This document shows, in pieces, positions 1 to 33,398 of a stretch of 64,000 nucleotides of DNA; positions within the stretch are counted from its first letter, which is position 1, and each line of letters begins with the position of its first letter. The DNA comes from Schmidtea nova. Its lineage: Eukaryota. The stretch spans positions 436,914,001 through 436,978,000 of the forward strand of contig CM097883.1 of assembly GCA_044892505.1 (NCBI GenBank). Reading direction: 5' to 3'. Under the pieces are notes generated by a model, which had not been told where the DNA came from, did not search any database, and saw only the letters and a list, made by a program, of their open reading frames with translations. The position numbers were made by a program, and so were the translations under genes.

Positions 1-118
1 ATATATATATATATAATTGATGCATGTGTGCGTATTTTTATGTAGTTAAATGTTTTAGGTAATGTCTTTATTTAAAATGTTTATGTATTTAGTTAATACA
101 TAACACAACAAGCATAGC

Positions 119-301
119 ACTAAAATAATTAAAAACAAACGCCAATCCAAATATATATTTTGCACAATATATTTCGAGAGCCTAATTCTCTTCATCAGGT
201 GCTACCCAATCTTACATTCAAATCTAAATCAAATAAATCGATTTTCTCAAACAAATTAGTATTAATTTATAAAATATATATTTTAAATTTCATATTATAG
301 T
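119..301 (-). repeat. Hammerhead-ribozyme-containing repeat (Penelope pLTR/retrozyme-like), copy 1
   Basis: Reverse complement is identical over about 173 nt to 7271-7443, with one indel at the outer edge. Confidence 0.9.
162..202 (-). ncRNA. Minimal type I hammerhead ribozyme (PLE-type)
   Basis: Minus strand reads GCAC-CUGAUGA-A-GAGA(auuaggc)UCUC-GAA-AUAUAU-U-GUGC. This gives the conserved core, a 4-bp stem II, a palindromic stem III and a GCAC/GUGC stem I. Confidence 0.75.
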
Positions 302-883
302 CAAAAAATAAAAATCGATTAAAATTTTTCAATTTAAATAAATTAATCTTAAAAATATAATATTATTTTATTTTTATACAAAAAAATATTTTTTTTAAGA
401 ATATATTAAAAATATTTCCATATTTATAAACAGAATGATTGAAAACGAAATCCATAATCCCCAATTGAAAATGCTCTAAAACTCGAGTACAGAAAAGTCT
501 TGTCCAAAGTATGTGGCATTACGTCCATGACATTTGAAAAATTAAACGAGTATAGAACACAAATCAAAAGAAGAAAATAAACATCGTCAACAACCACATC
601 AGTTAATCTGTTTAAACCGCAAAAAATGAAGCAAACACATATCGATGTTTGTGAATATGTGAGTGTGAGAGTTTTGAGTCCGTCTTTTCTGTACTTGAGT
701 TTTAGAGCATTTTCAATTGGGGATTACGGATTTCATTTTCAATCATTCTGTTGTTTATAAATATGGAAATATTTATAATATATTCTCAAAAAAATATTTT
801 TTTGCATAAAAATAAAAGAATATTATATTTTTAAGATTAATTTATTTTAATTAAAAAATTTTAATCGATTTTTATTTTTTGAC
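300..883. mobile_element. Foldback/MITE with about 200-bp imperfect inverted arms
   Basis: About 300-498 is the imperfect reverse complement of about 685-883 (gtcaaaaaataaaaatcg...cgatttttattttttgac). Flanked by TA on both sides. Confidence 0.75.
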
Positions 884-885
884 TA

Positions 886-960
886 TGTTTGGCAAAAACC
901 TCAAATTGTTTTAATAAAGCAATAACCCCATAGGTAGAGAGCGCGCAAGATTCAGTTTTA
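886..960 (+). repeat. Terminus of a dispersed LTR-like repeat family (TGTT(G/T)GGCAAAAA)
   Basis: Diverged similarity to the reverse complement of 12700-12810 (shared gtagagagcgc motif) and to 57972-58090. Confidence 0.4.
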
Positions 961-2118
961 ACCATTACATCCTTAAAAAATCCAAACGATTAAGTGAAAA
1001 ACACCAAAAGGTGAAGTAGACTCAGAACACATCAACCGATAGAGAGCGAGCTGGCTGTGAGACTGAAAGCCCTTACACTGAAACCTCGAGAAAAATCAAA
1101 TGCCATCAAAAGAAGAATGTCTGAAAGTTAGAATAGGCGGAAAACCCATTGAAAATACCCATAGAAAATGGAATTGCGTTATAAAACCTTCAGTGCAGGA
1201 AATATTAACAAAATTTTAGCCGAAAACTGTGATTTTATCAAAATATTTCACATTAACAACAAAAAGAACTAATATTGATCGAAATATCGTAAATTAAATC
1301 AAATCGAACAAATTTCGATTCAAAAATAAATATTTTGAATTAAAATAAATTATTTGTGTTTTATAAAAAACTATTACACAAAAATATGGATTTAATTTTC
1401 GGAAAATCATTAGAATTAATTTAGAAAAATTAAAAGGAAAATTCTAGAACAATTTGTTTTATTACACTACTGAAGGTAACGCAAAATCGATGGTATATAT
1501 ACCGCCATCAAAATGGAATTTATCGGAATTTGTGAGAATTTTATAGAAGAATATTTTTAAAATTTTAATTTTCTGGGAAAATTCGTAAGTCTCATTCTTT
1601 TGTTGGTGCGGGGTCATCGAACACCATGCCTGTCCGATTACCCCGTACCGGTAATATTTTTATATTTTTTGGTATATTATATTATTATTGCTATATTATT
1701 TTATGAATATTAAATGAGTATTAAAATTTTTACTGTTTATTTTTTTAAATTTTTTTTTGATTATTGTCACAAATCCCAGAGTTGAATTCACCAAAATTAT
1801 CTATTATAAAAAATGATAAAAGTAAATAAATACATTTTTTTTACTTCCGTACCCCCTGAAGCCTGTTTCTGGCCTTGTGCCGATCGGGTGGAAGTAGCCT
1901 GAGCGGATCGCTGGTTCGATACGTAAATCGATCAGCCCATATTTCCGAGTCCAGGTGAATAGCCTAAACATCCATGATCACTTCATCTCAACTGGGGAAC
2001 AGTGGCTTGGCCAAAGACAAGTTGTTATATTAATGATATTTGATTTATAATAAATGTAGTTTATCTAAATTTATAATTTCTGACGTATTTATCATTTAAA
2101 AATTAAGACCACATTTAA

Positions 2119-2199
2119 CACGTTGACGGACAGTATTAAAATTACAGCATTAAAATTACTTGAACTTGACGGCTATAGACGCAACTGTCCGTCAACGTG
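2119..2199. mobile_element. 81-bp piggyBac-type mini-MITE
   Basis: Perfect 16-bp TIRs cacgttgacggacagt/actgtccgtcaacgtg, with TTAA on both sides. Confidence 0.75.
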
Positions 2200-5100
2200 T
2201 TAAACGTAAAGACGATTTTCTCCAGTAATGTCTTTTCCATTATGAAAAATAATTGTGCAAGAACATTTTACTCGTCGTCGCCTTCACTCTCGCAACAACC
2301 GTCATCTTATCCGAAAACGCAAGTAAATGGAAGCTAATGTTGAAAAAAGAATCATATGAAATAATGCTCAAAACTGATATAATGATCCCGAAATGAAATG
2401 AATTTAGGACAAGTATTGATTGATCTGAATTAAACCTCATTCATTATCTAAATAATTTTCTCTAGTGAACTTTGTTTTCGGGAGCCTTAAATTCCTAAGT
2501 GAAGTGTCCCGAAAAATTCGCGCGCACTTTGGTTGGGGAAATTCATGCTCGAACGAAACCGAAATTCACTCTACTCGATGTCGAAAAATAGTCGTTGAAA
2601 AATTTATTACTTATTTTATTTTTATTTTTATTCAGTATATAAAACTTTTAGGTTGAATGCTTATTTGGATTTCTAAATTTATGGATAAAAATTTTTTTAT
2701 TATGTGGATTTCGTGTTGATCAAAAAATAAATATTTACCTTTTATTATATTGCCAAAATTTTATAAATGAAAAAAAGTAAACCAAAAAATTCCTAAGAAT
2801 TTATAAATAAAAACTTATATTGAAACCCATAAAAATTATAAATCGAAAATATTATTATTATATTAAAAAATTTTTATCATTTTATGAAATCCAAGATTTC
2901 GAAATTTCATAGAAAATATTTACTATTAATATATATATACTTAAAATACAAAAATTCGAACCTAAAAATGTATATTGTAAAAATCAGAAATTTTATTATT
3001 GTCGAAATCTTAAGAATCTATAAATTTAAAATTTGTATGAAATTATTTTTATTATTTTAATTTAGGAAATATAAAATTTATTATTATATTAATCTAGAAA
3101 GTATAAAATTTATTTTTATTAATTTAATTGTAAAAATTTATATTATTATTTTAATCTGGAATTTAATTTATATATTATGACTATATTATTTATAACATAC
3201 CCCCTAAAATCACATACAATTCAAATTTGCAATTCATTACACCCATACCAATCAATAGCATCACCCATACTAATACACAAGCAACATCTATTCAAAATAC
3301 AATATACACACATACAGAGCATCATTCAATAGTACACCCGGTTTCAAGCATTAAAAATAACTATGATACAAGTAGGTGTGCACACCAACTTGTTACTCAT
3401 AGTTACTTTGTTTAATGCTTTACATTTAATTTATTACATTTATTTTTCATTTATTTTTAAATTAGCCATTTTTTAAAACTGGCTATCAGGTAATTTTATT
3501 TATCTAGATATCTTTTAAGGATTCTATTTTGATCTTACAATGATGTAAGATCACTATAGAAGCTTTGAAAGTTTATCTACATTCTTCATTATTATTTTTA
3601 TTTTATATTCATTAGTTTTTTAGAAAAATATGATTTTTTATGAATTTTTTTGGAAGTATTTTATTTAAATGTAAGTAAAATTATTTTTTAACAAAAGTTT
3701 ATTAATGAAATTAATCGTTATCCGAATATTTCTATTTAATATGTTGTTCTACACTTACATTTATTAAATTTTTAAATACTTTTTAGGAAATCATGATTTT
3801 TTAAACATTTTTTGGGAATTATTTTCATTTAACGTAAGTTAAAAAATCATTTTTTAATAAGAATTATTATAATTATTTCTAATTTTGAAATATTTTTTGG
3901 ATATTCCAAGAAATAATTTAATTAAGCTTAATTTTTTATTTCAAGAATTGGCAAAGTATATTATCCTGTATTATCTTAGGCTTCAAAATGATCTAAATTG
4001 AAGTGTAAATATGTTATTTTGTCTATAATTTTAAAATAATTAGACTGAATTATTTTTTTTGGCAACTGAAAACGAAAAGATTTTGCAAATAATTTTTGGA
4101 AATATATGAAATTTTATATTAAAATAAAACTTACGATGTTATCTATCCATTTTCTGGACAACTACCCTAGAAAATATTCCAAATATTTACCCAAAAACCA
4201 TATTTTAAAAATAAATAACTTTATTATAGGATTTTTAATAGCGAAATAAATAACACCCTTAAAAGTTTGCATGCAATTTTCATTATGTTTTGTGTTTGTG
4301 TGTATAATTTATTTTTTCTTACAGAATGTCTATCACATATTAAAATTTTTTAACCATGAAATATCAAAATGCAACACCTACGTAAGTTTTCATTTGCTAT
4401 TAGTTATTTTTAATTTATATTATAGAAATTTTTAATGCTTGAAACCAGGTGTATTCAACAATTATATACACACAAGCAAACCATACCGAAAATTTCACCC
4501 AGACATGTCAGTTGGCGTCGTACGTCCAATCACACTCACAAGCACTCAATTGTTCTCAGTCACCCATCACGAAATTACGTACTTTCATTCAACATTTCAT
4601 CCAACATACCATCACAACAATAGAGTGTCCGTCTCAAACTTACAATAACGTATAGATACACACAAACTTGCAATCACTCCACTGAAAGTTTATAATATAT
4701 CCATCAAAGCAAGCATACATGTCATCACTGAACTATTACATTTTACATCATTAATCCATCGCAAGACTTAACAATCCCAATTATAGTGATTTCGCATCCA
4801 AATATAAATTCGGATGAAGCCCAAAATTTTCACCCACCCTGATAACTTATCCCCTACGTAAAAGGAAATTATTTGAACGAAAAGTGAGACCCGATTTAAC
4901 TTTAAAAGGAGATGCCATCCATCTGATAAGAAAGAGAAGATCGAGAAAGTTATTAACTCATGAATTATGGTCTTACGGTAATGTACTGTGAAAAAGGGTG
5001 CAACTCGTGCTACAAGAAAATTCACCCAAAACATTTGTGCTATAGATGTAGGAGGTACAAATATTTTTCTTTAATAAAAATCAAGATTTTTTTTTATAAA

Positions 5101-6247
5101 TAAAAATCAACATCAAAATTTATTTTAATTTATTAAAATGAACAAAAGGTGAAACCAAAGATTTTTACCACAATGAATAAAATTGAGAATCGAAAACTTT
5201 TGAAGAAGTCTTATCTAAGAAACCGAAGTGGATAAAATTCCAGAGATTTTCTTTCCAGTGAGCGGTAGATCCGCAGGTATAGATGTAGCAGATACATAGA
5301 GGCCGCTGAACTCAATTGAAGTAAATCCAAACGTGTAGTTCTAGCCAGCGCCATAATAATGAGAATGGAGTCATATTTGATATTCTTTTTGAGGAAATTG
5401 TATTGAATTGAGGATCGTAGAATAATTCATCTTCTTTCTTGTGACTAACTAAAAAGGAAAATGATGGCCGTTAAAATTTAAAAGTTAAAAAATCCAAATG
5501 AATTACCCGTAAATTTCAGCATTATTCGATCAGATGAAAATTTTTCTCGCATCTAAAAATAGTTTAACAAGAAAATCAATCAATACATTAATAAAATTAA
5601 ATTCCCATACTATAAATTAACCAATAAAATTTGGTAATTCCTTGTAATGCGTTTATATACTTTCTCCTTTTTTCGGGGGAACGCTGAGGGTATTGAGGGA
5701 ATCGCGGTTGAAATCGGATTTCCTAATCAAAAATTTAATTTGAAATTGGAATAAGAAATTAAAATTTATAAATAAGAGGATTATCAGTATAATAAAATTA
5801 ACATGAAAATTATAGATTGTATATTGTTACCGTTGCTAAGGCCTCGGCGAAATTTTGAAAAGTCAAAATGATAAATTTTAATAAAATGCTAAAGATTTAT
5901 AATAAGCAAGATAGACATTAGGTATAAGAGATAAGCGAAGTTTTAGTAAAATTTATCAACACAAAAATATAAAAAATCAAAAACACCCAGAAATTAATAA
6001 TAGTTGGGTCCAACTCAATAAAAATTAATTACCCCGAAATTTTGTGATAGATCAAAGATTTTTCGATCTCTGAACTGAGTTGGCGATGGTATAGTTGAGG
6101 GTAAACATTGTAAGCAATAATGAATGCGTATAAAAGATCGATAAATGTTCATCGATCAAAATGATCTTATTTTATTGATTTAAAATGAATATTTGAAATT
6201 GAATGTCAAATGACGACTGGAATGGGTTATGATTGTATAATTTTTAG

Positions 6248-6811
6248 ATGTCCGAAATGAATATAGAACAGAAATTCGAAGAGATGTACAAATTGATTTT
6301 GGAAAATGCCCGCCATAATCGTCGGGTAGACCAGTGTTTCGCCGAGATGGAGAGGGCGAAAACCTCAAATACGGATGCGCTACAAATCATGACTTCTCGG
6401 ATGGAGAAGTTCCGAGCGCGATGCCGGGAGATGGAGTCGACGTGGTCGGACAAAGAGACCGTTGACAAACTCCGCAAGCAGAACCAGATGCTGTTGCAAC
6501 AGGCTGCGGACGACGCAATGAGATTGAGGGCGTGCCGAGTCACAATCCGGGAATTGGAAACTCAGAATGAACAGCTGAAGACGGACAGTGGCATCATTGC
6601 TGCCGTCCTGCCAAAACCACCCTGTCTGTCTCAAGAGCTGTTCCCAGTGAGGGTCAAAGAACAGATATTGACACCTCCTGTTCCCGCAAAAACAGCCAGA
6701 CAGAAACCCAATAAAGGGGTGAGGGCTCGGCGAAGACGTCGGCAGGAAGCGAGATTGCTGGGGCAAATCCGCAAGGAATCTTCAGAAGTGATAGACATTA
6801 CTTCTTTGTGA
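6248..6811 (+). CDS. Uncharacterised 187-aa coiled-coil protein with Pro-rich linker and Arg-rich basic tail
   Basis: Intact ORF at about 50-55% GC in an AT-rich background. TATAAAAG lies about 120 nt upstream and AATAAA about 130 nt downstream. No recognisable family. Confidence 0.6.
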   Translation: MSEMNIEQKFEEMYKLILENARHNRRVDQCFAEMERAKTSNTDALQIMTSRMEKFRARCREMESTWSDKETVDKLRKQNQMLLQQAADDAMRLRACRVTIRELETQNEQLKTDSGIIAAVLPKPPCLSQELFPVRVKEQILTPPVPAKTARQKPNKGVRARRRRRQEARLLGQIRKESSEVIDITSL

Positions 6812-7269
6812 TTTAACTGACAATGAATATTTTATCGTGTATCTATTTATTTTTCTTTGTAGTTTGTGTTGTTATATTTTTTGTTAACATTAAAGTTTTC
6901 TCTTGTTTTTTTTATTTATTGGTTCGAATGATTGAAGGGAATAAAGTGATGTATGGAATAAATTGAGTAAAATCAACTGAGGTTTAATAGTAAATGAAGT
7001 TCATGAAGTTTTTCTGAAGTAAATAATACCTAGGAGGGACAAAATGGGCATAAAAACTTCTATCGGTAGCCCTTGGACCCAGGAGATATTCGGTCAATCA
7101 TAGTTTCGTATTGACGACGCTCACTGATTGCGAATACCCACCCACTTGTTACAGTACCAACGTTACATAGTGACGGGTAACAAGATGGTAGTTTAAATGT
7201 TTTATGTGTTGAGTTGTTGATGAGAGCCATAGAAACGTCAAGGTCATATTGACGATCAACAACCCACCA

Positions 7270-7451
7270 ACTATAATATGAAATTTAAAATATATATTTT
7301 ATAAATTAATACTAATTTGTTTGAGAAAATCGATTTATTTGATTTAGATTTGAATGTAAGATTGGGTAGCACCTGATGAAGAGAATTAGGCTCTCGAAAT
7401 ATATTGTGCAAAATATATATTTGGATTGGCGTTTGTTTTTAATTATTTAGT
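7270..7451 (+). repeat. Hammerhead-ribozyme-containing repeat, copy 2 (inverted relative to copy 1)
   Basis: Identical to the reverse complement of 119-301 apart from one indel at the outer edge. Confidence 0.9.
7369..7409 (+). ncRNA. Minimal type I hammerhead ribozyme (PLE-type)
   Basis: gcac ctgatga a gaga attaggc tctc gaa atatat t gtgc. The predicted cleavage triplet is AUU. Confidence 0.75.
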
Positions 7452-7715
7452 TAATGTTTATATTTCTTTATATATTTGACAAATTATTTAAAAAATTATT
7501 TTAATAAAGAAAACCTCTATATTAATAAAAACATATTATTGTTTAAAATAAAAAACTAAAAAACTGAACTTTAATAAAAACTTACAAACAAACTAAAATA
7601 CGAATGATAATACATTTATTAAATGAAAACTAAAAAAGGTAAATACAAATGATAACACAAAAACATTAATAATAACAATAACATAAAAGATATATACAAT
7701 ATACGTGTATTCAAT

Positions 7716-8254
7716 TATTGTTGCGGTGATGATTGATTGTAATCTGTCATCTCACGATTGCATTCATTGTAATCTGGAAGATTATCGGGAGTCTTGTAAT
7801 GACATTCATCACAATCAGGTTATTCTGACGAATCGTCGCATTGTGAAAATTTATTACATTGAACTGATTCGTTGAATTCTGAAGAAACAGGGCAATAAGC
7901 AGATTCATCGCAATCCGGAGTACAATTGGGTCATCTTTTAAGTTATTCTTATTTTTTTTCTTTTTCTTTTGCGGATTTTCACTCGAATTATTTCAGTTCT
8001 GTCCGCAAAATCCATATACGGAACCTCTGAATTCGGTCGGTACAATGCCCACATTAATAGGCACACAGGATGTTCTCGGCCATGAAAGGGATCTCAACAT
8101 CCAAATTTGCTAGATGGTCCAGCAATATTTGTTTGGCGACTATTCTCGAAATACACTGGATCTTATATGGGAATAGTTCGGGTGCTGTGTAAGTCAGCTG
8201 AGCCATCAAATTTGGGAATATTTCTTCCAGTTTGCTGTATAATACAGCCATCAT
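7716..8254 (-). pseudogene. Frameshifted unknown ORF with basic KRKRKK stretch and acidic Cys-containing repeats
   Basis: MMAVLYSK...YTAPELFP.../MWALYRPNSEVPYMDFADRTEIIRVKIRKRKRKK/...PDCDES...PDCDEC...PDYNEC. Same strand as the neighbouring TBP-like relic. Confidence 0.35.
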
Positions 8255-8558
8255 CTTTTCTAAATTTTAAAAATTATAAAAGATGTTAACTAGCAATTTT
8301 TTAATCTACCAGTTTTTAGTTTTGTTGATTTGAGACACATTTTAGATATAAATTATCACAAAATGTTCATGGTATATAAACGATAGTAACACACAACATA
8401 TAGAAAATAATACACACATAATAAATCAGATTCGAGTACACATAATATGTCTTTATTTGATAAATACATACGAAGCCAATCAGAATCGTGCATTACTATT
8501 GTAGGTTTATTGCAATCATGAGTCACACGATAATAAGAAATCTAAAAAGTCTTTATCC

Positions 8559-9010
8559 TCAATAATTGATTTTATATCGATAAATAATACTATCAACTAT
8601 ATTATAATAATCCTTATTTTTAACCCTAATATAACCGCTAGCAAATATATTAACACACACAGGATTATATTTTATATATCTCAAAGTTGGATATATTTCT
8701 GGCTCGTAAACACAGTCCAATAATTTAGATAAAATATTTAAATTACAACTAAATCCTAAGTCTACCGTTACAGTAATTGATTGTATTTTAAAATCATAAA
8801 TCTTTACTTTTTCATCACTAATAAATTCCTTGCATCCCATAATTCTAAATCTCCTGGTCTTAAAAGAATATTATCGGGTACTTACCACTTCTATCAATAA
8901 TTTTCTGTGGTTTCCCTTTGGGAATTTCATGTGAGATACATCAATTTTACCTTTATAATTTATGTTGCCAATCATTACTTTAATAAATGTTTTTTAAATA
9001 TGAGAACAAT
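8559..9010 (-). pseudogene. TATA-binding-protein (TBP)-fold pseudogene
   Basis: DFKIQSITVTVDLGF...CVYEPEIYPTLRY...VNIFASG matches TBP repeat 2 (DFKIQN..SCD..F...YEPELFPGLIY...LIFxSG). The upstream frameshifted IIFFKTRRFRIMGCK resembles the end of repeat 1 (LIFSSGKMVCTGAK). Confidence 0.75.
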
Positions 9011-9068
9011 GACAACTATTTTTAAAAAAAAATATAAACAATAATACTAAAATTAGAAAATTAGAAAT

Positions 9069-9693
9069 ATGGAATTAAGAAATGATGCAGTTTTTCAAAT
9101 TGTTGGCCCGAGCTGGAGTGGAAAAGCTTTGTTTGTTTGTAAATTATTACAATCAAAATTATTCAAGTCCAAATTTAATAAAATATATTGGCATAGTGGA
9201 GCAGATGATGAATATGGAATGACTCAAGCTCAATTTTGTAAAATCAAAATGACTATAATAAAGGTTTTGATAAACATTGGTCTACTAGATTACGACAAGG
9301 TTATGTGATTATTATTGATGACTTGTATGAAGAAGCAAATAAAGAAAACGATTTTAATAACTTATCTACAAATATCGCTAGGCACAAAGGTGTTACAGTT
9401 ATTTTTATTACTCAGAATCTATTTCATCAGGGTGATAGTCATCGAACTCGTAATTTTTATGTTCAATATCTAGTTTTTTTTAAATCCTAGAGATACAACA
9501 GTTATTGATTTTCTTGCAAGACAAGCATACCCTTTCTAATTGTAATTTCTTGATTGATGCGTTTCAAGAGGCTACAAAAGCTGCTTATGGATATCTTTTT
9601 CTTGTTATCACCCAGCAATGTAGTGATGATTTAAGAGTTAGAACAGATTTTTCAACAAGGAAGGAGCTATGGTTTATAAACAAAGTTAATTAG
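9069..9693 (+). pseudogene. Maverick DNA-packaging ATPase (FtsK/HerA, poxvirus A32-like), disrupted
   Basis: Degenerate Walker A GPSWSGKA, Walker B IIIDD, VIFITQNLF and YLVFFKS*RD...LARQ motifs across three frames. Confidence 0.9.
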
Positions 9694-9866
9694 ATGGATA
9701 TTATCAATCATGTTAATGAAATCTCGAGTAAGGTTTTCACGTTTTATAAATGCTAGAAAAACAAAGAAACTAGGAAAACAAAGAAAATAGGAAAAAACAA
9801 AGAAACTTAGAAAAACAAAGAAACCAAATGCAAAAACTAGTTATACACAACCGAAAAAATTAATCT

Positions 9867-10203
9867 TTGGATAATATTCCAAAGAGTAATCGTATTAAAA
9901 ATACTTTAAAACCAAAACCAAAACAAATACATCATCGTAGTTTCCCATTTTTTAATGCATTACTTAAAGCCCCTAGTATTAGAAGAATGAGTATTTTACA
10001 ATCGTTTCCTATTTACGTTATTGTGGATTTACTAATGATTTTAATTAAAGTTGTTAAAAGTAAAATCAATAAAAGTGAATCAAATAAAAGGGTTTTGAAC
10101 AAACACAAGAAACCACTTTTATCACTCGTAAAAACAAAAGATAGAAAATTAATGCGTAAAATAATATATAAACAACAAGAATGATTTATTGCAGCACTAT
10201 TGG
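9867..10203 (+). pseudogene. Small basic Maverick ORF ending QQ(G-G)FIAALL
   Basis: ...HKKPLLSL...RKIIYKQQE*FIAALL resembles the conserved Q-x-G-G-F-hydrophobic end of a small Maverick ORF. It lies between the ATPase and the integrase. Confidence 0.5.
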
Positions 10204-10289
10204 AAGGTGCTGGTTCATCAGGAAAAGGTCATAAACAATGGGACAATCGTTGCCTAATCTTAATTTTAACTCTAAATCTTCTTGTTGTA

Positions 10290-11305
10290 ATGGAGAAGAT
10301 ATGGACGAACCTAAAACACGAGGCAGGTTTTGGTGAGGTCGAAAAGCTAAGGGAAAATGTATTGAATTCGAAAAAAAACAGACTCAAAGTTGGTTATCGG
10401 GGCAACTTGCATACAGTCTAAACAAACCGATGCTGAAACGGTTTCCAACTCAAACATATAGAACGTATAGAATTAATGATTTGTGACAAATGGATTTGAT
10501 GGAAATGATTTCATATTCAAAAATTTTCAAGGGATGCAAATATATTTTGAGATGTAGTGATGTTTACAGTCGTTTTGCTCGGGCTATTCCAGTAAAATCT
10601 AAATCTGCTAATGAAATGGCTATTTCAATCAAAACAATATACAAAAGTGGACGTCCAACTAATTTACAAGATTATATATTATTTTATAAAATGATAATTA
10701 TTTATCTAGGTAAGGAAAAGAAATTATAGAAGGAATCGATCATTACTAAGTATTCTCCCAATTCAAAGCAGCCCATGTTGAAAGATTTAATAGTAAATTA
10801 AGAGATCGTCTAAAGAAATATTTTGTGCATCAAGGGAATAAAACATGGATTAATGTTTTACCACAAATTATTCATAGTTATAATCATTCTGCTCATAAGG
10901 TATAAATGGAAAGAAACCTGCTAAAGTAGTTGATACTGAAAATAATTTGAGTGATACGAAAATAAAGAAACCAAAATATAAAATTGGTGATCATGTTCGA
11001 ATTAGTAAAATTAGTGCATTGCCATTCATTAAAAATTTTGATAGTAATTGGAGTGATGAGTTATTTAAAATATCGAAAGTCAACACAGTCCAGAATCCTG
11101 TCATGTATAATATTTCTGATTCTGATAACAATATAGTCAGTGGTAAATTCTTTGAACAAGAATTACAAGTTATTCCCCCAAACGATATTTCGAATTCAAA
11201 AAAATATTGAAAACTAAAATGATCGGTAAAGATAAACAATACTATGTCAAATGGCATGAATATAAAGAACCGTCATGGATATCGTCAAAAGACCTCGTAA
11301 AATGA
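10290..11305 (+). pseudogene. Maverick retroviral-like integrase with C-terminal chromodomain, disrupted
   Basis: QMDLMEM...YILRCSDVYSRFARAIPVKSK; AAHVERFN; WINVLPQIIHSYN; KYKIGDHVRISK...NWSDELF; chromo-like YYVKWHEYKEPSWI. Confidence 0.92.
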
Positions 11306-12309
11306 GCTTTTATACAATTTTACCGAGCAATAGTTGTCCCGGTATACTGCCAGTAAATTCATGATCAATCTACAAAATCCGATTTATTTAGAAGGTATTT
11401 GGAAAGTTGCTCACTTAGACTTTACGTTTGTGTATAATCCATTTCCATTTTATAATAAAGCTGAACTTCGGTAAAAAATGAAAACTTTGCGCTCAAAATA
11501 TAAAAGTTTGATAATTGACAATGAACTAGATGAAGTTGATAAATCTAATCTTTCCGATGATAATGCTCAAATATCTAGCGATAAGAATTTTATTTATTTC
11601 ACATGTGATCTTTATCCCTTCACTATAACATTTAATACTTTGGCAATGGCGAAAAGGTAAGACAAACTGAATCAGAGTTATCAAAGTCCTACGGATACAT
11701 ACAATATGCCGTTACCTAAATATATCAAAGTTGGAGAAAGGCTTGAAAAATTTAGAATAAAGATAAAGTTTAAGGATGATACTTTCATACACATTTAAAA
11801 ATAACTTATAAATATCGAAACTAGATAAAATGCAATCATATATGATTCAAAATTGTGGAAGTATCTTTAAATCATTAGATTTGATAGATGATAATTACTT
11901 CTAATTCAGTTTGAATCCGGATATATGTGAAGTTACTTTTGACAGAAACCTCGTAAAAACATTGGGATTAGCGAAAGCAACCTACGCTCAAGATGGATAT
12001 TTCAATGTAGGAATAAATAAACCGAAAATAATTAAACTTCATCAATAAATGTTCATTTACAGTAATATAGTCAATCCTATAATTGTCGACGATTTATTAG
12101 TTCCCATGTTAAAATCGGTATGGATTGAAAAACATGAACAGGATGAGGTTGTTCAAATACAAGTAGAAAATCCAACGTATTTAACGGTTTCAACTTCTTG
12201 TGTAAACAATATAGAAATAAATATCAGAGATGATAGAGGTAATTAAATAAACTTTCCAAAAGATTCAAAAATTTATCTGACTCTACATTTTCGAAAAGGC
12301 GATGAGTAA
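11302..12309 (+). pseudogene. Maverick minor capsid (penton-like), disrupted
   Basis: N-terminal MSFYTILPSNS...LQNPIYLEGIWKVA; C-terminal FIYSNIVNPIIVDD...PMLKSV...IEINIRDDRG...LTLHFRK. Confidence 0.85.
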
Positions 12310-12390
12310 TCCTGTTATAATTTCATTGTACAGTAATAGCCAAACTGGTGGCGAATTACCGTATTTTGTAGGTAAACAGTATATACGGTA
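12302..12390 (+). pseudogene. Start of small Maverick ORF (QTGGELPYFVGKQY motif), truncated
   Basis: The ATG overlaps the end of the penton. The motif Q-x-G-G...F-x-G-x-x-Y is typical of the small ORF between the capsid genes. Confidence 0.55.
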
Positions 12391-12439
12391 TATACAGAAT
12401 AAACAATCGAATGAAAGGTCATCAAACTATATTTGAAGA

Positions 12440-12544
12440 ATGATTTGCTGTAAATCTGAATTATGTCTTTTTGATCGACCATCTCCCCAAGCAGCTATTG
12501 AATATGGGGTATTTGAAGATGTATTTCTAATGAATTTTATTTGA
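12440..12544 (+). pseudogene. Maverick major capsid (hexon-like) N-terminus, truncated
   Basis: MICCKSELCLFDRPSPQAAIEYGVFEDVF matches the CxKSELxLF..P.Q..IE.G N-terminal motif. Confidence 0.7.
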
Positions 12545-12699
12545 GATAGTAGAAATGATGTTTTTAATTTGTCTTAATTTGTAATTTTGTTACATAATTG
12601 ATGTTTTTATGTTATATATGGGTTTTTCACGTGTAATGCGCTTTTGTTCGTTTTAATTCTTAGACGTGTTTTATTTAATTATTTCGGTGTTTTGTAATT

Positions 12700-13575: not shown

Positions 13576-15045
13576 TCAATATCTGGTTTTAATACCTCTA
13601 CAATAGGTGAACCTTCTGAGTTTTCTAATTCTATTGTGTTTGGAATTAGAAGTTGCTAACAAATGCTGAATGGGAATAAAATTTGCCACATTAATTAACT
13701 GGAAATTTGAATAAGCAACTTTTTTATCGTTAGATTTTTGCAAATTAGAAGCATTATTTGTGTCCGAGAACTTTGAATCTGTATCTGTAATAGTATCAGT
13801 ATGTTTATCTGCTAAATGTGGATTCACTATTTCATCAAAATTTTCTTTAAATTTTCCATGCGAAAATGAAACATCGTAAGATGGATACGATAGTGAGATC
13901 ATAGAATTACCTTCACGACTCTGTAAAATACTCGTGCTGTTTAACTGTTCATCCTGAGTAAACGTGAATGAAATATTGGCATTTTGTCGTAAGTTATTAC
14001 AACTGTCAATGCTAGATTTTGTGTCATTTTTATCATCGTATGAAAATTGTAGCCTTTTAATTTTTTTATCAAATTCCACTACTTTATACATATTTTTCGA
14101 CTCCCTAAAATCCCAATAGTTTTTCTCATTTAATTCATCCATTGAAACCTTTAGAAATTTCTCTTCTAATATTAAATAAGTGCTCTCTTTTTTGAAATAC
14201 GATGTAAAATTCGATGGTGTAAAGAATAAGTTTTGGCTTTCCAATTCCTTCTTGAATTGATTTTTATATTTCTCGGCTTTTAAGTTGTGATCTAGATGCA
14301 TTTTAAATCCAGTTGAAGTTGAGAGATTATGAGAAATTATTTTCTGTTTTATTCTTACAATATTTGAAAGTAGTACTCTATTGGGATTTGAAATAATAAT
14401 GGTATTTCTAAAATTTTCTCCGATATTCATATGAAGTTTAAGATTTTTCATTTGAGTTTGCTTAATATTATATGTATTTTCATAGAATTCATTATTGTCT
14501 ATTAATTTTAAAACTGTCTGTTTGGGTTTGTAATTCAGAAATTGAAATAAATTGATATTGGATCTTATTAAAACTAATCTAAAAGATGAATCTTTATTCA
14601 CTACTATATTACTTGATTTTTCATCAGTAGCATGTTTATCAGAGTTGACAATGAAAGAATTCCATTGGTCAGATTCTAATTCGTAAAATTCATGCTCATT
14701 GATATCCCTTATAGGATGGATAATATATTGGCATTTAGCAGTTTTTCTCGACGATTTTAATTTCTTATTTTTCCGTAAAGTAGACTTTACAATTGTAAAC
14801 GGTTGAAATTTATCTATAATTATTTTTCCCCCAAAACATCCGAAAGTCTTCAGATTTTCTAAATAATATTTGGTGCGACTGTCCAAATTCTGAAATATTA
14901 TTTCATCGTGTAATTTTAAATTATCTGCATATAGAGGATATATTAGGCGATTGATATTTGGCTTATAGAACACTTTCTTTTTGGAATGTAAATCGTAAAT
15001 TAATTTATTGTTTAATGAAATTTCTCTACAAAATATAGTTTTCAT
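13576..15045 (-). CDS. Uncharacterised 489-aa K/N-rich protein (uninterrupted ORF)
   Basis: 1470-nt stop-free frame in very AT-rich DNA, beginning with ATG. No recognisable domain. A possible donor AG|GTATT near the 3' end means it may be a large exon. Confidence 0.7.
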   Translation of the reverse strand: MKTIFCREISLNNKLIYDLHSKKKVFYKPNINRLIYPLYADNLKLHDEIIFQNLDSRTKYYLENLKTFGCFGGKIIIDKFQPFTIVKSTLRKNKKLKSSRKTAKCQYIIHPIRDINEHEFYELESDQWNSFIVNSDKHATDEKSSNIVVNKDSSFRLVLIRSNINLFQFLNYKPKQTVLKLIDNNEFYENTYNIKQTQMKNLKLHMNIGENFRNTIIISNPNRVLLSNIVRIKQKIISHNLSTSTGFKMHLDHNLKAEKYKNQFKKELESQNLFFTPSNFTSYFKKESTYLILEEKFLKVSMDELNEKNYWDFRESKNMYKVVEFDKKIKRLQFSYDDKNDTKSSIDSCNNLRQNANISFTFTQDEQLNSTSILQSREGNSMISLSYPSYDVSFSHGKFKENFDEIVNPHLADKHTDTITDTDSKFSDTNNASNLQKSNDKKVAYSNFQLINVANFIPIQHLLATSNSKHNRIRKLRRFTYCRGIKTRY

Positions 15046-15255
15046 TAAAGAATTTAATACATAATTTAATAAGAATTAGATTTATTGATTTCAAATTATT
15101 CAATAGTATTTTCTTATTTTATTAGTTAATAAGTAATCCGGAAAGTGTAGATGGGTTGGTAGCGTGAGACAATTATTGTGGTTTATTCGGTTGGTTTTTA
15201 GGACATACCTACTAAGAGGCATGAGCAAACTTTTAATTAATTTATTATTGTTTAA

Positions 15256-28344: not shown

Positions 28345-29956
28345 ATTTAAAATGTATGCTAATTGTGAATAATAAATGTGGGAATGGGTGAAAATATGCA
28401 TTTAGAAATGATTTTAATGATTTTAATAATAATGATTTAATTTTAATTAATTATGATAATGATTATAGCCATTTTGTAAAGCTAATATTAATAATAAGAA
28501 TTTAAATGTTTGTTAGACACTGGGGCTAAAATTAGTGTTATAAGTAAAAGATTATCTGAATTAATTAAGTAGAAGTTACAAAAAATAAGCTTTGCTAATA
28601 TAAGTGAGTTAAATATTTGTTTTAGTAATATAGAACTTAAATATGAAAATTTGATTATTGTTGCAAATTTTTACGTGGTAAATGAAATTTACCCAGAAAT
28701 CATTTTAGGCATTGATATATTAAATGAAATAAATATTAAATTAATGGAAATAAATGAAAATAGGAAACGTGATGCAATGAAAAATAATAAATGCATAATG
28801 AGTTTAAAAAGAAGTTTGAAAAAAATTAAAACAATGAATTTGAAAATTTAATTAAAACGAAAGATATTTCGTCGTCATATAGTTTAGTAGAAATAATAAA
28901 AACGATTTAAAAATATTTTTTTTGTTGAATAAATGGTGCATTGGACTAACTGATATTTTAAAGCACAAAATACAAACTAATTTTAAATCTATAATGATTA
29001 AACTGAGAAAATGAAAATTATGAAAATATAAAATCTAGAAAATAATGAAATTATAAGAAAATATGAATCTCCTTGGAATTCACCAATAGTATATGTAGCG
29101 AAGGAAAATACGAATGATATTCATATGTGCTTAGACTTCAGATCACTTACGCATTTTCAATTCCAAAAGTTAATGAAATGTTGCCGGGTCGCCCCATTTA
29201 ATCAACTTCTAAAACATCAACTTTTTACCCTAAAACATCAACTGGCAAAAACATCAACTGGCAAAAACATCAACTGGCAAAAACATCAACTGGCAAAAAC
29301 ATCAACTGTCAAAAACATCAACTGGCAAAAACATCAATTGGCTAAAACATCAACAATCTAAAACATCAACAATATAAAACATTGAATTTCATTACAATTT
29401 AAATAATAATTTATTATTAATTAATTATTATTAATTTTTTTTGGGGGGGCGCCCTTTCCGGGTCGCCCCATTTAATCAACTTCTAAAACATCAACTACGA
29501 AAACATCAACTTTTTACCCTAAAACATCAACTGTCAAAAACATCAACTGTCAAAAACATCAACTGTCAAAAACATCAACTGGCAAAAACATCAACTGGCA
29601 AAAACATCAACTGGCAAAAACATCAACTGGCAAAAACAACAACTGGCTAAAACATCAATTGGCTAAAACATCAATAATCTAAAACATCAACAATCTAAAA
29701 CATCAACAATATAAAACATTGAATTTCATTACAATTTAAATAATAATTTATTATTAATTAAATTTGTCAGTTGTTATTTTGATTTTTGAAACTATTATCT
29801 CTCGATCGCTTTAACTTCAACTCATCGTCACTCAACAGCATTAGATTCAACTCTACAATAATAAAGGTAAAATATTTTATATTTTAAAAATTAGATTTTC
29901 TTGCAAAAAGTTTTTTTTTATATTCAGCCTTTGTGCTTTCCGTCAAAAAGGTGATA

Positions 29957-32068: not shown

Positions 32069-33398
32069 ATTTTTCCGGCGCCCGAATTTCTCCACGTCTA
32101 TATTATATAAAAAATTATTAATATTGTTGAAAATTTGAAATAAAATATATCACATCACAGTCCTTTTTGCATTTATGAGAATTCAAACAATTTCAAATTA
32201 TTTTCTAATTGTTTTCTAATTGTGTCGTAATTGACTTGCACAAATTAATTTTTTTTTATTAAAAAATAATTTGCCGGTCCCTAAGAAAGATCCATTAGAT
32301 AAAAATATTTTTTAAAATTGATGTTTTTGACAGTTGATGTTTTAGGGCAAACTTGCAGTTGATGTTTTAGTCAGTTGATGTTTTAGGGCAAAACTGCAGT
32401 TGATGTTTAGTAAGTTGATGTTTTAGACAGTTGATGTTTTAGACAGTTGATGTTTTAGTCAGTTGATGTTTTAAAAGTTGATGTTTTAGTAGTTGATGTT
32501 CTAGAAGTTGATGTTTTGGGGGGGCGCCAAATGTTGCATGTTCTGTCGATTTAGGAAACTTATATTATCAAGTCGTACTTGAAGAGGACTCTTGAGAAAA
32601 AATGGGTTTTCCACTAAGTATAGACAATATTGTTTTAATAGAATGTCATTTGTCATATCAGCAGTCTTATAAAATTTCCAGAAACTAATGTCCATTATAA
32701 TTGGAGATAAGATGTGGAAAGATGCTTTAATATACTTGGATGACGTCTTAATCTTTTGTGAGACAATGACGAGCATAAAAATTGTATTGAAAAATTATTT
32801 ATCATTTATAAGAAAAATGCAAATTTTTAATTACAGTATTAAAATTCTTTGGACATGTCATAAACAAACGTATTAAAACTGATCCAGAGGAAATTAGTAC
32901 AGACTAATTTTCAAAAGCCCCGTTTAAAAATAATACTATATATAAGATCCAATGGTCTGAGGAATGTGAAAATGCCTTTGAGAAACTTAAATATCAGATT
33001 GTTAATACACCAATACAGAAGAAAGGTATCAACATATTTAGACATCGTGCAGCAACCTTAATGGAAATAGCTTATAAGTTGGTGATGACGATTGTAAACA
33101 AGCTTTTAATTAAACATTGAATAAATTATAATTTCACAAATACAGTAATTTGTCGATAAGTGTCAAAAGTGATAAATCAATTTTTTGAAACCCATAAAAA
33201 ATAAGGATTGACAGTCATCAATCTTTAATGTATTAATTTTCGATTCATATTTTGATGGCTTTATTTATCCAGCAAAATAGCTAATGAGTGTGACACCTAT
33301 CGATAATTTACTGTTTATATTTTATTTTATTTATTTATCCCTATGAACATAAATGTGATAAATGGTGACATTTATCGTTCAAACTCCATTTAAATATT

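Follow-up and report, generated by a model that had tools for sequence, protein, structure and literature searches.

The broken gene found in the 64,000-nt stretch of Schmidtea nova DNA analysed here (the window) belongs to a family of small TATA-binding proteins (TBPs). Our data support that this TBP gene has long belonged to a broad Polinton/adintovirus clade and is not a host retrocopy, because divergent elements carry it linked to Polinton genes, its divergence tracks that of the packaging ATPase, and it is separated from host TBPs; the sequence-only reading of the window had rightly suggested that this lineage carried a divergent TBP of its own. Sequence comparison further makes it probable that the viral TBP acts as the element's own promoter-recognition factor, setting off a second transcriptional wave at a YATAAACR box.

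The window contains a decayed Polinton remnant, which over 4.1 kb is 86% identical to young copies as a whole, and which comprises the following features:

10..98: continuation of the remnant past the 7.3-kb insertion
123..7448: later insertion splitting the remnant, with 179-bp perfect inverted repeats at its ends
7438..12561: main Polinton remnant, 77-91% identical to young 17-kb copies
7718..8263, minus strand: Cys-motif accessory gene orf179, downstream of TBP, broken
8507..8975, minus strand: broken minimal TBP gene of the Polinton; intact natural copies encode 158 aa
8562..8870, minus strand: stop-free piece of the TBP gene covering the last part of repeat 1 and the greater part of repeat 2 (PF00352, 1.1e-9)
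9033..9040, plus strand: TATAAACA box, 36 nt upstream of the ATPase ATG
9069..9686, plus strand: A32/FtsK-type packaging ATPase, broken
9675..9682, plus strand: TATAAACA box ahead of the basic core-protein-like gene
9680..10190, plus strand: basic Lys/Arg-rich gene, broken, probably core-protein-like from its composition and position
10167..10174, plus strand: TATAAACA box ahead of a small MG...CC peptide ORF
10230..10237, plus strand: CATAAACA box ahead of the integrase
10284..11302, plus strand: RVE integrase with a C-terminal chromodomain-like part, broken
11266..12306, plus strand: minor capsid (penton-like) gene, broken, assigned from position and similarity among relatives
12437..12562, plus strand: first 42 codons of the major capsid protein, where the match to natural copies ends

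No PolB was found in the window remnant. The insertion at 123-7448 (7.3 kb), whose 179-bp terminal inverted repeats are 100% identical, contains a nested inverted-repeat element at 297-886 and a 187-aa ORF at 6248-6811 without a Pfam match. Just past the remnant lies a 499-aa open frame (13576-15075, minus strand), again with no Pfam match, and arrays of a 16-nt unit at 29184-29809 and 32318-32519 are oppositely oriented and separated by about 2.8 kb. The small Met-Gly...Cys-Cys ORF, a conserved frame situated just before or overlapping the integrase start in the window (near 10238) and at loci L052, L057, L066, L095 and L111, has its own upstream box and is a candidate for a lipid-modified virion peptide.

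The TBP-fold gene that had been proposed at 8559..9010 is real. Its in-frame piece at 8562-8870 on the minus strand matches not only PF00352 (1.1e-9) but also 35 PDB TBP sequences, the structure model described below matches TBP as well, and alignment to natural unbroken copies extends the gene from an ATG at 8975 to about 8507, with 94.6% identity to the youngest subfamily. The same alignment places disruptions of the frame at five sites (near 8916, 8866, 8636, 8621 and 8584) instead of the three or so frameshifts initially read near 8913, 8863 and 8632, and the start codons of TBP (8975) and ATPase (9069) are separated by 93 nt instead of about 60 nt. The absence of an intron was borne out, as was a decay similar to that of the flanking ATPase, integrase and capsid genes. 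For all protein analyses we used natural unbroken copies throughout, not the window copy.

Searching the S. nova genome (1.25 Gb) revealed at least 150 TBP copies; all 150 scored candidates matched, and as they were scored out of 16,356 first-look candidates, the figure is a lower bound and not a copy number. Among 29 fetched copies, 21 are stop-free over 158 codons, with a median pairwise identity of 99.2%. Four of five 40-kb neighbourhoods hold elements of 16-17 kb, while the fifth is rearranged. Polintons are defined by long terminal inverted repeats (TIRs) with AG...CT ends and a 6-bp target duplication; in 4/4 copies examined we found TIRs of 1.1-1.2 kb beginning AGTAGTAG together with 6-bp target duplications. 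One strand of the element encodes the ATPase, basic protein, integrase, minor and major capsid proteins, protease, orf165 and protein-primed PolB (pPolB), and the opposite strand TBP, orf179 and the unassigned orf168. Pfam identifies pPolB (PF03175, 8.3e-29 in a natural copy), the RVE integrase (PF00665, 6.2e-9) and the A32-type packaging ATPase (PF04665, 9.5e-7). The frame after the major capsid gene carries the His, Asp and Cys motifs of an adenain-like protease, and PF00770 scores above cut-off at seven genomic places and 1.1e-7 in the relative L090. The major capsid protein matches the double-jelly-roll profile PF21738 under the cut-off (E 0.001), with fitting size, position and conservation, and the minor capsid protein, without a Pfam match, is assigned from position and conservation among relatives. 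The element is a Polinton, and no RNA polymerase gene was found among its mapped ORFs.

In young copies (e.g. L040:8600-8740) the integrase is interrupted by a 43-nt GT...AG intron-like segment, at a site where it is continuous in nine metagenome relatives, which suggests that the element is transcribed by Pol II in the nucleus and its transcripts spliced; a similar intron-like stretch occurs near the start of orf179. At L010-L014 (G000:C1:172.09-172.11 Mb), five tandem copies of TBP plus orf179 are spaced 4.0-4.1 kb apart, with no long ATPase ORF adjoining.

The TBP gene is under purifying selection. Between L002 and five older subfamilies its dN/dS is 0.12-0.16 in 5/5 pairs (dS 0.6-0.8), and over all 15 pairs of six natural copies from different subfamilies it ranges from 0.04 to 0.44, the highest value occurring at a dS of 0.03; for the ATPase, three pairs give 0.04-0.08. 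At least 38 close relatives score distinctly higher than cellular TBPs, with a clear gap in between, and the family comprises 59 clusters at 50% identity with E under 1e-30. A metagenome scan yielded 78 loci, of which 72 were kept after removal of six (five other TBPs and one without a match). A core Polinton gene lies on the contig at 34/72 of these loci, and at 26/32 of those of at least 3 kb, confirming the suspected linkage to Maverick genes. The head-to-head arrangement with the ATPase, correctly described for the window, was rejected as a conserved feature: it recurs at only 2/25 loci with an ATPase match, 21 being head-to-tail. TBP and ATPase distances correlate over 16 elements (Spearman 0.83) and also within two subfamilies (0.66 and 0.77).

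Furthermore, four host TBP-type and 18/19 cellular sequences are set apart from 39 Polinton rows by a long branch (SH-aLRT 99) in a tree that was a quick 63-row run with archaeal and giant-virus TBPs left out, and in which one long-branch sequence (P0088) was placed on the Polinton side. A processed host pseudogene, which had been named as an alternative outcome of such a tree, was not borne out. The host loci of TBP type (L129-L133) include a canonical gene, a near-duplicated paralogue and two further paralogues, both divergent, that form one group in the tree; host TFIIB is split over exons, and its single-exon match reads as Brf1-like. When distant queries for ATPase, capsid and protease were run against the S. 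nova genome, no TBP-less Polinton emerged, and 13/13 checked ATPase loci adjoin a TBP match, so that this genome offers no internal TBP-less control. IMG/VR scans returned no relatives; the only two matches, both weak and to Walker A, were rejected as Polintons on inspection. Accessory genes in L054, L095, L099 and L106 encode a ubiquitin-conjugating enzyme, a RING finger, a KilA-N protein and a PLA2-like domain. Polinton contigs L181-L184 come from bacterial MAG records, two of them from a tubeworm endosymbiont bin, and are probably host contamination.

The Polinton TBP is a single domain of 158 aa (family range 145-170 aa). Profile search and structure prediction both match TBP: the natural protein scores 6e-16 against PF00352, and its AlphaFold (AF2) model (pLDDT 92.8) superimposes on human TBP with a Z score of 12.3 and an rmsd of 2.6 over 141 residues at ~28% identity in the structure alignment. 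The two-repeat fold recognised from the sequence alone thus holds for the strands, which are predicted in both repeats, but not for the helices of the first repeat, both of which are missing; in the model of this short subfamily, no helix of at least four residues precedes residue 79. In a sister subfamily of longer proteins (165-173 aa; L093, L096, L098, L099, L102, L106, L107, L109, L112 and L180), which uses the same box, both first-repeat helices are predicted to be present, making it a natural intermediate towards the short form.

Residues, given in yeast TBP numbering, were counted over 157 non-redundant family members with the register anchored by structure alignment. Three of the four DNA-intercalating Phe residues, whose presence was an obvious point to check, are kept (F116 in 154/157, F190 in 156/157 and F207 in 157/157), but the F99-equivalent is variable, with Phe in 20/157. 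Hence the Polinton TBP lacks two canonical TBP features, the first-repeat helices and the set of four intercalating Phe. The acidic C-terminal stirrup for TFIIB appears retained (E186 in 152/157, E or D in 157/157; E188 in 156/157). The DNA face, on the other hand, seems to be re-coded family-wide relative to cellular TBP: V122 is replaced by R in 155/157, T124 by M in 157/157, I194 by R in 156/157 and L205 by N in 156/157, and N159 to S and V203 to C are further near-invariant replacements among the 157 members. Of these positions, I194, V203 and L205 are reportedly the residues altered in the altered-specificity yeast mutant TBPm3.

Upstream of the Polinton genes, the core motif ATAAAC occurs on the sense strand in 57/67 non-redundant segments against 5.7 expected, and on the antisense strand in 3/67. 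These segments cover the 90 nt upstream of the ATPase, core-protein-like, integrase and both capsid genes, and the box was first spotted by eye in the same sequences as were used for this first count. Ahead of TBP genes, ATAAAC is found in 3/49 cases against 2.6 expected. The box is seen in elements whose capsids are 27-57% identical, lies 31-38 nt upstream of the ATPase ATG in 17/22 cases, and occupies different reading frames of the upstream genes, which indicates that the constraint acts on the DNA. In one complete S. nova element, the virion-gene strand carries 11/12 strict matches, and the 3.8-kb PolB frame is free of them; the window copy still has the box at 9033, 9675, 10167 and 10230. 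The box also precedes the integrase, orf165 (5/8) and PolB starts (1/2), and some elements lack it upstream of the protease, so that calling the box-bearing genes 'late' simplifies matters.

The box and the TBP gene also tend to occur together. The box lies upstream of 40/57 ORFs in eight TBP-carrying elements versus 0/28 in four TBP-less ones, and among five further Polinton contigs retrieved with an ATPase query, L180 has both TBP and box and the four without a TBP match are without the box. As the TBP-less controls represent about two lineages, three of the four being GC-richer and three being partial contigs outside which a TBP could lie, this co-occurrence is suggestive only. Compared with a canonical TATA box, the YATAAACR box differs at position 7 (C), at the end of the TATA box that is read by the first repeat of TBP, the repeat that is remodelled in the Polinton protein; the leucine facing this position is Ile or Val in 120/157 members. 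The TBP genes themselves are preceded by TATAWAWR in 21/49 cases versus 6.4 expected and by TCAYT in 33/49 versus 14.5 expected, with no canonical TATA found upstream of TBP genes in the S. nova subfamilies.

We thus propose a probable course of events in which the host machinery would make the viral TBP first, since relatives have a canonical TATA and an initiator-like TCAYT upstream of TBP. In a next step, the re-coded DNA face of the viral TBP would bind YATAAACR and its intact acidic stirrup would recruit host TFIIB and Pol II, so that a second wave of genes (packaging, integrase, capsid) would be switched on. In cellular TBP, the surface of the first-repeat helices is used by Mot1, TAF1 and Brf1. 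It also includes helix 2, which touches TFIIA and NC2 (accessible part of PMC2577341), and Mot1 sits on the convex side of TBP (accessible part of PMC4565979). The loss of both first-repeat helices in the short subfamily would remove the TFIIA/NC2 surface and may put the protein beyond the reach of the host factors that regulate TBP.

Several other readings of box and protein have to be weighed. The box could be a real promoter element whose reader is either host TBP, which would take it for a weak TATA, or a Forkhead factor of the host. We consider this unlikely; the viral TBP would then act otherwise, conceivably as a general boost to initiation or by binding the termini. ATAAACA does fit the Forkhead consensus RYAAAYA, but the classic form GTAAACA occurs in 1/67 segments. 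Host TBP prefers A or T at box position 7, against the C that is present there almost without exception, and both versions have to contend with the strict sense orientation of the box and with its absence from all 28 ORFs of TBP-less elements. What keeps this main rival alive is a crystal structure of wild-type, host-type TBP bound to a C(-25) variant of TATA (PDB 1qn3), in which Hoogsteen pairs avoid a leucine clash at position 7 (accessible part of PMC4402545), so that host TBP could read TATAAAC.

It is quite improbable that the viral TBP serves as a decoy or host shut-off factor, titrating TFIIB or occupying host TATA boxes. An intact TFIIB stirrup without the regulatory helices would suit such a role; yet the DNA face is invariant while unlike that of cellular TBP, which better fits a specific new site, the element is present in at least 150 copies in the genome, and the box would be left unexplained. 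Of the two functions offered by the sequence-only reading, driving the element's own promoters gains support from the YATAAACR box, and competing with host TFIID found none. Still more doubtful is that the box is an initiator or a 3'-processing signal, instead of a TATA analogue, with no link to TBP. In favour of this, the box and the stop codon of the preceding gene frequently overlap, and a few boxes sit no more than 8-19 nt ahead of an ATG; however, the modal distance of the box from the ATG is ~35 nt, it is absent after several capsid genes, and it is present before ATPases that have no preceding gene on the same strand, including head-to-head ones, which argues against a 3'-end signal. 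Finally, the chance that a host TBP retrocopy landed recently in the element is negligible, as an intronless gene is all that speaks for it and a processed pseudogene is ruled out by the linkage to Polinton genes in divergent elements, the purifying selection and the position of host TBP-type sequences across a long branch (SH-aLRT 99), to which the breadth of the family (59 clusters) adds.

Cellular TBP/TRF and archaeal TBP share with the Polinton TBP the two-repeat saddle, three intercalating Phe and the EPExFP stirrup; in contrast to them, it has no N-terminal tail, its F99 position is variable, its DNA face appears re-coded, and helices H1 and H2 are absent in the short subfamily and present in the sister subfamily. 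Nucleocytoviricota likewise encode TBP homologues, with BFVD matches to E 1e-7 but only 8-22% identity to the Polinton TBP. Those proteins serve a viral multi-subunit RNA polymerase. As is proposed for the Polinton, the herpesviruses with the TBP mimics KSHV ORF24, EBV BcRF1 and HCMV UL87 are DNA viruses of the nucleus that bring no polymerase of their own and express structural genes by means of a TBP-like protein and an altered TATA box, here a TATT box ~30 bp upstream of late start sites (accessible part of PMC6541308). These herpesvirus mimics are, however, large, bind Pol II directly, work in a six-subunit complex and read TATTWAA (same source), whereas the Polinton TBP is a single domain of 145-170 aa that keeps the TFIIB stirrup and is probably paired with YATAAACR; its match to the BcRF1 fold is weak (E 0.044, 13% identity). 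If the proposed reading holds, the Polinton TBP would work like these mimics without being one.

Polintons/Mavericks/adintoviruses have in common pPolB, an RVE integrase, a packaging ATPase, a protease, two capsid genes, long TIRs and a 6-bp target duplication (Starrett 2021, PMC8502044, accessible part). The accessible part of this paper describes no TBP family, reduced fold or promoter box; it does carry the label 'TBP' once, in a figure legend of related viruses, as a label alone whose family may differ, which qualifies the earlier impression that TBP is unfamiliar as a Maverick gene. Literature searches whose coverage left out most subscription papers and Repbase found nothing on a Polinton TBP family or the YATAAACR box.

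In summary, it is possible, and we put it forward tentatively from the sequence comparisons, that this large Polinton clade runs its own transcription cascade in the host nucleus via an orthogonal TBP-promoter pair that evolved independently of the herpesvirus TBP mimics. If true, this would be direct evidence that Polintons stage their virion-gene programme, by means of one protein of ~150 residues that reads YATAAACR, retains a TFIIB handle and has lost the helices by which TBP is held in check in the cell. Being a minimal TBP made by nature, and one whose specificity appears altered, the Polinton protein could help to find out which parts of TBP initiation needs, and the proposed cognate pair of factor and box makes virion-gene expression and viral autonomy in Polintons testable.
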